Shown: positions 12,880 to 51,051 of the stretch, one piece after another
How positions within the stretch are numbered: the first letter of the stretch is position 1
Layout of the letters: every line of letters starts with the position of its first letter
Source: Candidatus Omnitrophota bacterium
GTDB taxonomy: Bacteria; Omnitrophota; Gorgyraeia; B26-G9; JBDRCZ01
NCBI GenBank assembly: GCA_043821285.1
Contig: JBDRCZ010000058.1
Location: 18,699-82,698, forward strand
DNA length: 64,000 bases
Direction: 5' to 3'
Notes under the pieces: model-generated
What the model saw: the letters and a program-made list of their open reading frames with translations, nothing else
The model's database searches: none
Told to the model about the DNA's origin: nothing
Position numbers and translations under genes: made by a program

Positions 12880-12891
12880 GGTTCTGTCAAA
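12880..12891 (-). promoter_or_regulatory. TTTGACAGAACC motif (minus-strand sense), 25 nt upstream of the apgM ATG
   Basis: + strand GGTTCTGTCAAA. One of 4 near-identical copies at a fixed distance from start codons. Confidence 0.4.
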
Positions 12892-12920
12892 TGCATAATA
12901 TCCATGTTCGCTCGTAGTGA

Positions 12921-13304
12921 TTATCTCTTTTTCTGATTTTTAAGTAACACCGCATCGATTTTTGCTTTCAAATCAGTATAATCGACCGGCTTGTTTAAAT
13001 AATCACTTACCCCTAAATCCAATGCCTCCAGATATGTTTCCCATTCGCCGTATCCGGTAATAATAATAACCGGAAGATCCAGCCGTTTACCCGATAATTT
13101 CTTAAGCAGGCCAATCGCCGTATCATCCGGCAGCTTTAAATCCGCAACCATTAAATCATATTTTTGTTTTTCTAAATTATCAATTGCCGCCTCGATCGTA
13201 CCTGTTTCCGTGGCTAAAAATCCATCCTCCACCAGTAATTTTGCCAGGTATTTTCTAAATACCACATCATCTTCAACCAGCAATATTCTATATTTTTTTG
13301 CCAT
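12921..13304 (-). CDS. Single-domain response regulator (CheY-like receiver)
   Basis: ILLVEDD...DLMVADLKLPD receiver motifs. The start was moved to ATG 13304 (MAKKYRILLVEDD) because AAGGAGG lies 7 nt upstream. The ORF-track start at 13328 would cover the ribosome-binding site. Confidence 0.8.
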   Translation of the reverse strand: MAKKYRILLVEDDVVFRKYLAKLLVEDGFLATETGTIEAAIDNLEKQKYDLMVADLKLPDDTAIGLLKKLSGKRLDLPVIIITGYGEWETYLEALDLGVSDYLNKPVDYTDLKAKIDAVLLKNQKKR

Positions 13305-13361
13305 ACGCACACCTCCTTTAGTCCACAAGTTTTGCCAAAAATCCCGCTTTTTTTCTCATCT

Positions 13362-50300: not shown

Positions 50301-51016
50301 TTACTGGTAAAATCCGGCTGGCCAAGAACAATATCCGCCTCCGCAAAATTCTCCGTGGGGATGCTATTATAGATTAACACCCGATTATTCGCAGCATCTG
50401 TAACATACAAGCACACTCCGTCGCTATGCACATCAGTAGGTGCTAATAGACTCTGGCTCGTTACCCCGCCGTTATTTGGGAGATTACTGGTAAAATCCGG
50501 CTGGCCAAGAACAATATCTGCCTCCGCAAAATTCTCCGTGGGGATGCTATTATAGATTAAGACTCGATGATTAAAATGGTCCGCAACATACAAACGTTCT
50601 CCGTCACTATATGCGGCCATTGGGCCCCAGAGGCTCTGCGAACTAATATTGCCATTATTGGCAAGATTGCTCGTAAAGTCAGGCTGTCCAATAACAACAT
50701 CCGCCGGCTGATTATTAGTTGCCGGGATATTATTATAGATTAGCACCCGGTTATTAAAATAGTCCGCGACATACAAGTGCACTCCGTCTGTAGAAACAGT
50801 ACCTGGGCGCGACAAGCTACTTGCACTTAACCCTCCATAGTTACTATCATTAGTCGTAAAATCCAACTGTCCCAACACAAGTTGAGCTTCTTGAGGCTCT
50901 TCAAACGCAAAACTTGATAGGGATGGTGGACTAAGGCATACAACAATCCCGGCCACAATACTTGTAAAAATCATCAAAACTTTCATTCCCGCTTCTTTTA
51001 TGCGATGAATATACAT
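44324..51016 (-). CDS. 2230-aa secreted NHL-repeat plus RHS/YD-repeat protein with an approximately 840-aa C-terminal extension (PKD-like and carbohydrate-binding-like domains) after the RHS core
   Basis: Signal peptide. Six NHL-type repeats (YVADxxNNRVLIYN). Dozens of YD repeats (YxYDxxGNL). RHS core RARYYSPAIGRFLSPDPIGFEGGMNFYSYVKNNPVNFTDPSGL at about aa 1350-1390. Then a PKD-like segment YTIRLLVTNIHGAVAEDRVTVEV and repeated jelly-roll-like segments. AAGGAGAG ribosome-binding site 6 nt before the ATG. Confidence 0.85.
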   Translation of the reverse strand: MYIHRIKEAGMKVLMIFTSIVAGIVVCLSPPSLSSFAFEEPQEAQLVLGQLDFTTNDSNYGGLSASSLSRPGTVSTDGVHLYVADYFNNRVLIYNNIPATNNQPADVVIGQPDFTSNLANNGNISSQSLWGPMAAYSDGERLYVADHFNHRVLIYNSIPTENFAEADIVLGQPDFTSNLPNNGGVTSQSLLAPTDVHSDGVCLYVTDAANNRVLIYNSIPTENFAEADIVLGQPDFTSNLPNNGGVTSQSLWGVARVFSDGIRVYIADQGNHRVLIHNQIPTNNFQPADIVLGQPNFSSNVINNGGVSASSFYVPFAVYSNGESLFVADQANNRILLYAQIPTENNQSADAVLGQLDFSTNAGNFNGVTASSLSGPISVYGDGTWLYVADGYNNRALVYSEPIVLDVVARLFARTGNRYTTGKMIKIEVRGNFDLTNITSGSIRITSNSHGYDSGVQNLTMDYPVFYQWDTTDLNPGKDYTVDIELTDFHGRLIRDSSLVITLMPNPSPDRQLVRQIDFSMPAQGISVQIERVYTLYSGYDKYLGYGWTHTYLMHVVETSDGLVEIFNANGTGSFFKPKAPGEYESSKGDFRILTKNADGTYLLTEKYGKVFYFNRQGKLTRIEDRNGNALVFLYDPDNRLKTITDTSGQITFFYYDENNRVTSIEGPFGQRVWYEYDQEGNLSAVTDIGGFKTTYAYDQKHNLILISDPCGRQTFFTIYEDGRLKEYSNEEGNNRLFYEYSELSHEKKVTDNMGRQTRYIYNNNGLIICKEDTLGNISERVYDNNSNLVSTRDANGNQIFFTYDNRGNILTKTDAQGNVTVLTYEAQYNQISSITTPRGNTTSFAYDSNGNLITVIYPDGSRERYRYDDAGNLVRKTDRNGQKIKFCYTPRGKLREKIFPDGRKDVFSYDNYGNLIRIKGRNGVLRFKYDRANRLSKVTCPGKDKIRYRYDKTGNLTQLVYPDGTKLEYVYDDVNRLIQINSSSQTIAAYTYDAMSRVIRKDLQHNVYTEFSYDFLGRLGFLVNRKSNTEIISSFAYTYDAVGNRLTMITPEGLTEYVYDNIYQLSKVISPDGELAEYTHDQAGNRLTLTKNGDTTTYTTNMLNQYTNIDEDVYTYDNNGNLIEVAAVSGITTFAYDFENQLIRVNTPGEIIKYVYDPLGRRTSKITPAAITEYIHDQSRVILEKDKRGVVQATYVYGRGIDEILVMKRNGTDYFYCYDGMGSVTNIIDKSENVVESFSYDAYGVPNKVSSIGNPYLFTGREYEPEAGLYYYRARYYSPAIGRFLSPDPIGFEGGMNFYSYVKNNPVNFTDPSGLFDENRFYYDVAASFVGGFLASGDIFGGIFAASWTVMTYAVWEIAQNIPEPDYYEGPVDEPMSNITIDQNRDVSCGEPTFIQCIEKRPQQHKAVQKTNGLIAKISVPFADALVRAKVPIFGVAYGEAFREYRVDYGQGDNPREWVNITTSTIPQLKDTAPVMLDDSSDQTIYGNLATFDTGLKNYTYGDEYQQDHPIDLAGVYTIRLLVTNIHGAVAEDRVTVEVGRVIPNIYGGKAISTDGMVVLDVPEHALREPFRIITIKPLEDETLPFPEEGALVGKVYEMRPAGESFTRDATLGIKLPEDCFKDLSTEKLGIYAFNSQAKQWEYLPAFFDKAANELCAYLHGLPHGNAYFAVFEGINLGTALSRSRYAADKPAAHQLGLSKKSINSKEKFLIANTFEQSIEQWTNRNSDVGADLTLEQRKDLDSGYCLKLTNKNHGGNFASTIFDLPFNAKEYPTVRFDYKIPKQVNINFLVKMDERWYEIEFTDAVKEYKRLNMERIGQIENVIVDNKWHTAGFNLYALLQNYPPIVGRDNFVIQEMVMADWDAQGYMKLVYGKNKKGATYYIDNFIIEKDKHPPEKPVAKKDALLVAGFEHSLYANGLGPDAGLFQKNDFHSKISTAIEHDSERGPCLKLTYDVSEKDDYAGYYKLLRNIDLSAYRTLCFWIKGEIDNPVVQVGLMDKHGHEDKILVGSYLTMGITNEWQKVSIPLAGFSTIEDFSSLENINFTLENRFKNSTGVIFIDDITFEMDVVPLIAANCSDGAGRNVWGRDCKTFKTNNARINAFYDQLGSLLHYADIFSSRDKESWAGWIVDLNNIDVCEYPVLSFKFKRVHGSETPNVYLDDGTTRKYINLEQYLKSSTQWEKVRIPLRDFAVQGVDLRCLKNISFVFEWSPMSAGAVYVDKIMFEPLPF

Positions 51017-51039
51017 ATATCTCTCCTTATCTGAATTCT

Positions 51040-51051
51040 AGTTCTGTCAAA
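51040..51051 (-). promoter_or_regulatory. TTTGACAGAAC motif 24 nt upstream of the RHS gene ATG
   Basis: + strand AGTTCTGTCAAA. Confidence 0.4.

Follow-up and report, generated by a model that had tools for sequence, protein, structure and literature searches.

The window examined here, the whole 64-kb stretch of DNA that was analysed, comes from a single metagenome-assembled genome (MAG) of Candidatus Omnitrophota, a phylum that is widespread and uncultured and whose cells are very small, and carries a short motif that recurs just upstream of the start codons of functionally diverse genes. Read on the strand of the gene the motif is TTTGACAGAACC (GGTTCTGTCAAA on the + strand), and three copies are exact, all on the − strand. 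The copy at 12880–12891 lies 25 nt 5′ of the ATG (12854) of an apgM-type phosphoglycerate mutase gene, within the 66-nt gap 3′ of a response-regulator gene; that at 17543–17554 lies 23 nt 5′ of the ATG (17519) of a DUF362 gene with a twin-arginine (Tat) signal; and that at 26292–26303 lies 21 nt 5′ of the ATG (26270) of a LarA-like gene, within the 70-nt gap 3′ of a DAO oxidoreductase gene. A fourth copy on the same strand, TTTGACAGAACT at 51040–51051 (AGTTCTGTCAAA on the + strand), precedes by 23 nt the ATG (51016) of a 2230-aa RHS-repeat gene and has one mismatch, the last base being T, not C. An earlier note on this DNA, which had drawn attention to these four sites, took them to be identical; this is correct for three of them, while the fourth differs by that one base. 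Its figure of 21–25 nt between motif and ATG agrees with the 25, 23, 21 and 23 nt measured here, and its gene names are borne out by the Pfam matches (PhosphMutase/Metalloenzyme; DUF362 with an RRDFIK twin-arginine signal; Lar_N/LarA_C; RHS repeats).

Three further copies bring the number of good copies to seven. The variant TTTGACAAAACC, with A in place of G, occurs at 34857–34868 (− strand), 24 nt 5′ of the ATG (34832) of a bifunctional-nuclease-domain gene, and at 41367–41378 (+ strand), 23 nt 5′ of the GTG (41402) of a hypothetical gene of 498 aa. A weaker copy, TTTGGCAAAACT, at 13328–13339 (− strand), lies 23 nt 5′ of the ATG (13304) of a receiver-domain gene, with a perfect Shine–Dalgarno (SD) sequence, AAAGGAGGTG, between the two. 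Six of the seven contain an exact TTGACA with a TTT or ATT 5′ flank; the 13328 copy carries TTGGCA.

Is the recurrence more than chance? Dinucleotide-preserving shuffles of the window give an expectation of 0.01 exact matches, against the three found. With the relaxed pattern TTTGACARAACY and at most one mismatch there are nine matches where 1.66 are expected, and no shuffle reached nine. Only some 12% of the window is intergenic, yet each of the seven good copies falls between genes and points in the direction of the gene that follows it. When both strands were scanned with a weight matrix, the six top-scoring matches and the 13328 copy proved to start (as a 14-mer) 34–38 nt before a co-oriented start codon. 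Since the 41367 copy lies on the + strand and precedes a + strand gene, the orientation tracks the gene and not the replication arm. Alignment of the flanks confines the conservation to (A/T)TTTGACA(G/A)AAC(C/T), in which every variable position is a transition (G/A, C/T or A/G). The flanks are not conserved and the copies are therefore not parts of a longer repeat. The genome does hold several other short intergenic repeat families, and one might suppose that the motif too recurs by chance or is left over from a repeat or mobile element; the counts, the unconserved flanks and the strictly regular placement and orientation in effect refute this, and we give it almost no weight. We conclude that the motif is clearly real, statistically secure and linked to gene expression. 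Of the 31 upstream gaps of at least 50 nt in the window, about 7 contain it.

Two looser relatives of the motif are also present. The degenerate variant TTAACAAAGCAC at 19845–19856 (− strand) starts 36 nt before the ATG (19820) of a DUF4416 gene and resembles TTGACAGAGCAC, an arm of the palindrome described below. The variant TTAGACAAAACC at 39220–39231 (+ strand) stands in a 1-kb gap, away from any start codon, with an extended −10-like sequence, TGATAAATT, 19 nt 3′ of it. Beyond TGATAAATT, between 39250 and 39360, are repeated AACGTATAA units and an A/T-rich palindrome; the interval 39157–39371 lacks any open reading frame (ORF) of at least 45 aa and is a possible small RNA gene.

Between the motif and the start codon

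The geometry downstream of the motif is rigid. In all seven good copies the hexamer TTGACA (TTGGCA in one) begins 32–36 nt before the start codon, leaving 26–30 nt between its end and that codon. Every copy has a G-rich stretch where a −10 box would be expected: GGGGGG, GGGA, GGGG, AAGGAGAG, AGGAG, AGAGG and AAAGGAGGTG. This stretch begins 10–13 nt 3′ of the motif and ends 6–9 nt 5′ of the start codon, so that SD sequences (GGGG, AGGAG, AAAGGAGGTG) fill positions −7 to −15. Because their form and spacing match those of the other SD sequences of the window (AAGGAGG, for example), we take them for genuine ribosome-binding sites.

Upstream of the motif there is less in common. Positions −15 to −17 are mostly A and an A-tract occupies −19 to −12 in four of the seven copies; no other feature is shared. 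These A-tracts, 14–19 nt upstream of TTGACA, are reminiscent of an UP element. A promoter, TTCAAA-N17-TATAAT, lies 21 nt upstream of the 41367 copy and an extended −10-like sequence, TGTGATAAT, 13 nt upstream of the 51040 copy. Across the copies the distance from an upstream −10-like box to the motif varies from 3 to 21 nt. Three copies are found inside apparent operons, in gaps of 57–70 nt.

Do the leaders share a structure or a peptide? The minimum-free-energy folds of the seven leaders are weak and differ from one another, with no shared RNA fold, and nothing in the window matched Rfam at gathering score. A hairpin that sequesters the SD sequence is rejected for the inconsistency of these folds. 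A leader peptide encoded by an upstream ORF (TTG ACA RAA CCN, giving ORFs of 4 to 13 codons) is rejected as well: the wobble bases are invariant while the first codon position varies (E/K), and the conservation is therefore at the level of the nucleotide, not of the codon.

Other short repeats occur near some copies. The 9-mer AATCTGTGG is found eight times, always in intergenic DNA (17622, 17696, 17739, 17985, 24870, 34979, 53743 and 53949), and four of these form a cluster in the 650-nt gap that precedes the DUF362 gene. CTGTGAT repeats, related to AATCTGTGG, lie upstream of the 34857 and 51040 copies of the motif.

Promoters, palindrome and relatives

What does TTGACA signify in this organism? 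The window contains a perfect canonical promoter, TTGACA-N17-TATAAT, at 14060–14088 (− strand). It ends 8 nt before the ATG (14051) of a TP_methylase gene and thus has leaderless geometry: the gene is without a strong SD sequence, and TTGACA, followed here by AAAG, stands 37 nt before the ATG. A second promoter, TTGACA-N16-TATACT at 9254–9227, lies some 125 nt 5′ of a giant gene whose start is at 9094. That gene is a − strand ORF of more than 3030 aa which occupies positions 1–9094, runs from its ATG at 9094 off the start of the window, and has a very strong GC skew of −0.33. A promoter scanner found −35/−10 pairs in the window only at 14088, 9254 and 19970. Canonical promoters also occur in other Omnitrophota, some of them with a very short leader or none (locus and position L002:7118, L003:6354, L006:87, L035:1304, L035:8118, L035:18714, L036:3851, L036:5605, L036:7280 and L036:11359); among these relatives' promoters, of the form TTGACA-N17-TAnnnT, those at L006:87, L036:5605 and L036:3851 are leaderless or nearly so. 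On the strength of the canonical promoters in the window and at the Omnitrophota loci, we regard TTGACA as the housekeeping −35 box here. In loci of the Brocadiaceae, TTGACA-like hexamers peak 35 nt before start codons (7 of 180 genes). Searches of the literature on promoters of Omnitrophota or Planctomycetes produced nothing relevant, and searching with the sequence itself gave matches to primers only.

The earlier note had reported a perfect 37-bp palindrome built from the same half-site. The palindrome is real and perfect, and is one base longer on each side, 39 bp in all, with 18-nt arms (19958–19975 and 19979–19996) and a 3-nt loop; no other perfect inverted repeat in the window is as long. 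Its loop holds the stop codon of the Fer4 gene (19979–19981). The RNA form has a folding energy of −31.4 kcal/mol (z = −8.3); there is no T-run 3′ of the hairpin and the scanner called no terminator. The right arm, read on the − strand, is promoter-like (TTGACA-N16-GAAAAT, 10 of 12 positions) and precedes the DUF4416 gene by about 115 nt; the AAC of the motif is replaced in it by AGC. Another perfect hairpin, at 41094–41131 with 16-nt arms, overlaps the stop codon of an HD-GYP gene in the same arrangement. The simplest reading is that the palindrome is a 3′-end hairpin whose descending arm doubles as the −35 box of the next gene; on the same simplest reading the left arm is a forced complement and the whole is not a dimeric operator.

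Relatives were represented by about 650 kb of sequence from 45 related loci, namely 37 apgM, 4 LarA and 4 hypothetical-protein loci. The nearest homologues are distant (64% identity for apgM, 54% for LarA, 53% for the hypothetical protein), and no close relative is among them. None of the 37 apgM, 4 LarA or 4 hypothetical-protein loci has the motif 5′ of the orthologue. Two loci carry it elsewhere. In L035 (GCA_004196255.1), which has the gene order TP_methylase, receiver, apgM, purN, PGM in common with the window, an exact TTTTGACAAAACCC is followed after 17 nt by TAAATT, in a divergent intergenic region 97 nt before hemE. In L043, TTGACAGAACTAGAA is followed after a 17-nt spacer by CATAAT, upstream of an HU gene, and the 15-mer cTTGACAGAACTAGAA is common to this site and the RHS (51040) copy. 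In both loci the TTGACA of the extended motif is exactly at the −35 position. Two further Omnitrophota loci (L036 and L037, contigs from JGI metagenomes), which have the gene order purH, Mur-ligase, MnmE in common with the window, contain a small gene with a weak Pfam match to the magnetosome protein MamI.

Competing explanations

How, then, is the motif to be read? The interpretation that we place first, while giving it rather less than an even chance, is that the motif is an extended −35 box of the sigma-70 type and that transcription would begin on the start codon or directly beside it. The motif would act in DNA, as a promoter element composed of the −35 hexamer of the sigma-70 family, TTGACA, with a T-rich 5′ flank, and of a conserved, lineage-specific extension of 5–6 nt, RAACY, 3′ of the hexamer. 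Most likely it would be bound by sigma region 4, whether unaided or together with a partner that recognizes the extension, and the transcript would begin at the start codon or no more than a few bases away, as it would in the TTGACA-N17-TATAAT-N8-ATG promoter. The copies might then serve as internal or secondary promoters, with the SD sequences reserved for longer transcripts that read through from upstream. A non-housekeeping sigma factor might be used, or an activator needed; this is suggested by the G-rich −10 region, with GGGTAA, GGGATA or GGGTAT in three copies. Sigma binding, the position of the transcription start and the choice of sigma factor are all matters that we infer. The reading is ranked first because it accounts for the sequence and orientation of the motif, for its distance from the ATG, for the sites in both relatives and for the arm of the palindrome. 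Conservation at the nucleotide level without a shared RNA fold also speaks for it.

Several observations weigh against this interpretation. No copy of the seven has a TANNNT hexamer 16–18 nt 3′ of TTGACA. The hexamers found at 17 nt (GGGGTA, GGGATA, GGTATC, AGGAGA, AGGAGA, AGGTGT and GAGGTG) are SD sequences. Leaderless genes normally do without an SD sequence, a rule to which the gene behind the 14088 promoter conforms. In view of the good promoters upstream of them, the 41367 and 51040 copies are probably transcribed. Beyond the matches in L035 and L043 the motif is not enriched in the 650 kb of related loci, and the support from these two matches is modest (approximately p = 0.03), since 18% of all TTGACA hexamers in the fetched loci have a lenient −10 match at 16–18 nt by chance. 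The absence of a −10 box, with an SD sequence in its place, is a real gap. To that extent the earlier note was right that this is no simple −35 box, for an ordinary sigma-70 promoter with a leader does not fit. Its argument that the spacing leaves no room for a −10 hexamer, however, overlooks leaderless transcripts, of which the 14088 promoter, with its TTGACA at a closely similar distance from the ATG, is an example.

The alternative to which the earlier note had also pointed, an mRNA element close to the ribosome-binding site, is a live rival, though in our estimate a somewhat unlikely one. The motif would be a linear element of the 5′ untranslated region, 10–13 nt upstream of the SD sequence and transcribed from upstream promoters or within operons; it could enhance translation or act as a standby site for the ribosome, be bound by an RNA-binding protein or small RNA, or be processed to yield a short leader of defined length. 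The tight spacing between motif and SD sequence, set beside the variable distance to an upstream −10-like box, is what such an element should show. So are the three copies within operon gaps and the canonical-looking promoters that directly precede the 41367 and 51040 copies. The motif is also strand-specific and lacks symmetry, and variation by transitions only would still allow pairing with a fixed RNA partner. On this account, however, the exact −35 consensus within the motif would be a coincidence (about 0.2–1%). The leaders share no secondary structure and belong to no Rfam family, the 39220 variant is remote from any start codon, and the copies in L035 and L043, where the same extended sequence sits at a canonical −35 position upstream of a −10 box, would escape transcription altogether.

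Could the motif instead lie nearer to the transcription start? If TTTG-A-CAGAAC is aligned with TRTG-n-TATAAT it becomes a promoter-proximal element, of the −10 or extended −10 type, for a lineage-specific sigma factor, and transcription would start some 7 nt 3′ of the motif to give uniform leaders of about 15–19 nt that hold only the SD sequence. The SD sequence is then properly inside the leader and a −10 box downstream is no longer needed; the Brocadiaceae apgM orthologues have TTGATAAT or TTGACAAT at the same distance from the ATG, readable as a −10 region, and in three copies TTAAAA lies about 17–19 nt upstream of CAGAAC, a possible −35 position. We nevertheless think this quite improbable: every copy has C at the essential T of position −7, the supposed −35 sequence upstream is not conserved, and L035 and L043 carry the same sequence at −35 and not at −10. 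No sigma factor is known to use such a −10 element. Just as doubtful is a global DNA-binding regulator with the palindrome as its strong dimeric site and an operator that overlaps core promoter elements: at the palindrome and in the relatives this would be the −35 box, and in the copies of the window the region close to the start. It would explain why the longest perfect inverted repeat of the window carries the half-site, why the A variant has a core with dyad symmetry (TTTTG-A-CAAAA), why the downstream genes are so diverse in function and why the site overlaps promoters in L035, in L043 and at 19970. A transcription-factor half-site was one of the two readings that the earlier note had offered, and on the present evidence that case is weak. 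The single copies have no second half-site upstream; the four G-variant copies break the symmetry without compensation, and the strongly conserved CC has no symmetric partner. The palindrome has AGC in place of the conserved AAC and is more simply a stop-codon hairpin like that at 41094–41131. An operator gives no reason for a start-codon distance held within a 5-nt range across seven unrelated genes, and the cognate regulator for which the note had proposed to look does not appear in the window, which holds no gene for a DNA-binding regulator.

A broader and more tentative proposal, about which we are doubtful enough to put it well short of an even chance, is that the motif marks a separate class of expression signal, with the rigid order TTTGACARAACY, 10–13 nt, SD sequence, 6–9 nt, start codon, at about a fifth of transcription units. 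Members of this class might be promoters of a non-housekeeping sigma factor with a G-rich −10 region and a transcription start at the start codon, or they might be an RNA signal 5′ of the SD sequence that is read together with it by the ribosome or a partner protein. Either version, if true, would mean that an uncultured phylum has a gene-expression signal of a new kind; a literature search found no description of promoter or translation signals in Omnitrophota. If the rate of 7 in 31 holds genome-wide, the signal would be a major one. Its geometry, a −35 consensus and no −10 box with an SD sequence between hexamer and start codon, lies outside the textbook models. To be gained are better promoter and operon prediction in MAGs and perhaps a new sigma-factor specificity or ribosome-recruitment signal. 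Should the copies instead prove to be −35 boxes of weak internal promoters, there is nothing out of the ordinary in them.

The intergenic DNA of the window holds other elements besides. A leader of about 75 nt, conserved at 82% identity over the whole alignment, precedes a PilZ gene (24001–24080, − strand) and a HAMP-GAF-HD-GYP gene (39565–39643, + strand), both related to cyclic di-GMP. It contains a long hairpin, ACAATTTAYGAAR / CTTCGTAAATTGT, inside GCAGAC...GTCTG, ends at the SD sequence and belongs to no Rfam family; a novel cis-regulatory RNA is a possibility. Three 12-bp palindromes, TGACAAATGTCA, within a direct repeat of about 30 nt, GGATAGCCTAAAGAATGACAAATGTCAAAT, lie in the 95-nt gap before purH (34330–34424) and resemble an array of operators. 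A further intergenic repeat, about 90 nt long and recognized by ATGGATAAA, occurs six times on the − strand (10880, 20788, 36234, 36684, 38974 and 53656). Its consensus is GGGAAAGTTTGAAAACC..AGGTTTTTAAATGGATAAAAAGATTCCGAAGGAATTTTTTTAT and its end, a short hairpin with a T-run, is terminator-like; at 53623 the T-run passes directly into a promoter-like site, TTGACA-N17-TAGGAT.

Comparison with known signal classes

Which of the known signals does the motif most resemble? Similarity to the Spo0A (TTTGTCRAA), CtsR (GGTCAAA), PhoB (CTGTCAT), SinR (GTTCTYT), LexA and CRP/FNR boxes goes no further than partial strings, and these families are not expected in this phylum. A palindromic dimeric operator fits poorly, since dyad symmetry is absent from the single copies and the palindrome occurs only at 19958–19996. 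Sigma-54 promoters (TGGCAC-N5-TTGCW, with GG and GC 10 nt apart) are rejected by inspection: the upstream GG lies at a variable distance of 6–14 nt from TTGAC, and GA replaces GC. Promoters of extracytoplasmic function (ECF) sigma factors share the AAC but require a CGT-type −10 box 16–17 nt downstream, which is absent; positions 16–20 after AAC read GTAA, ATAA, ATCT, AGAG, AGAC and GTGT. The promoters of the Bacteroidetes (−33 TTTG / −7 TAnnTTTG) are likewise lineage-specific, contain TTTG, lie near the start codon and belong to a non-model phylum. Only the 17543 copy, one of seven, has a sequence that fits the −7 box (TACTTTTG), and the organism uses strong SD sequences and canonical TTGACA/TATAAT promoters; this class, too, is rejected.

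Translational enhancers upstream of the SD sequence, such as the epsilon element of phage T7 gene 10 and the U-rich leaders bound by S1, offer another parallel, being likewise short linear sequences at a fixed short distance 5′ of the SD sequence of unrelated genes. They differ in that the motif is a DNA promoter box, copies of which in the relatives lie outside the transcripts. On inspection, the motif showed no evident complementarity to conserved segments of 16S rRNA. SigB/SigF-type sigma factors of group 3 recognize a −10 consensus of GGGTAW and a −35 box of GTTTAA or GGTTT. In three of the seven copies GGGTAA, GGGATA or GGGTAT stands about 13 nt 3′ of AACC, from which transcription would start near the ATG. 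The other four have SD sequences of the AGGAG type, and the −35 sequences GTTTAA and GGTTT do not match the motif.

There remain the promoters of sigma-70 itself. The −35 box of the canonical form is present (TTGACA in six copies, TTGGCA in one), while its −10 box, with A at position 2 and T at position 6 after 16–18 nt, is found in none of the seven. A leaderless promoter has a −10 box that ends 5–8 nt before the start and has no SD sequence; the copies fit such a promoter only in the distance from −35 to ATG. They nonetheless resemble the leaderless promoters of Actinobacteria and Deinococcus, TTGACA-N17-TATAAT-N6–8-ATG, and that at 14060–14088 of the window, in several respects: the same TTGACA, the T-rich flank, the distance to the start codon and the co-orientation with the gene. 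They depart from them in having an SD sequence where the −10 hexamer should be and in the conserved RAACY extension; sigma region 4 is not known to recognize an extension of this kind, 5–6 nt in length. The motif, with its −10 box absent, is best classed as a −35 box of the sigma-70 type that bears a conserved extension and is set in an unusual arrangement.

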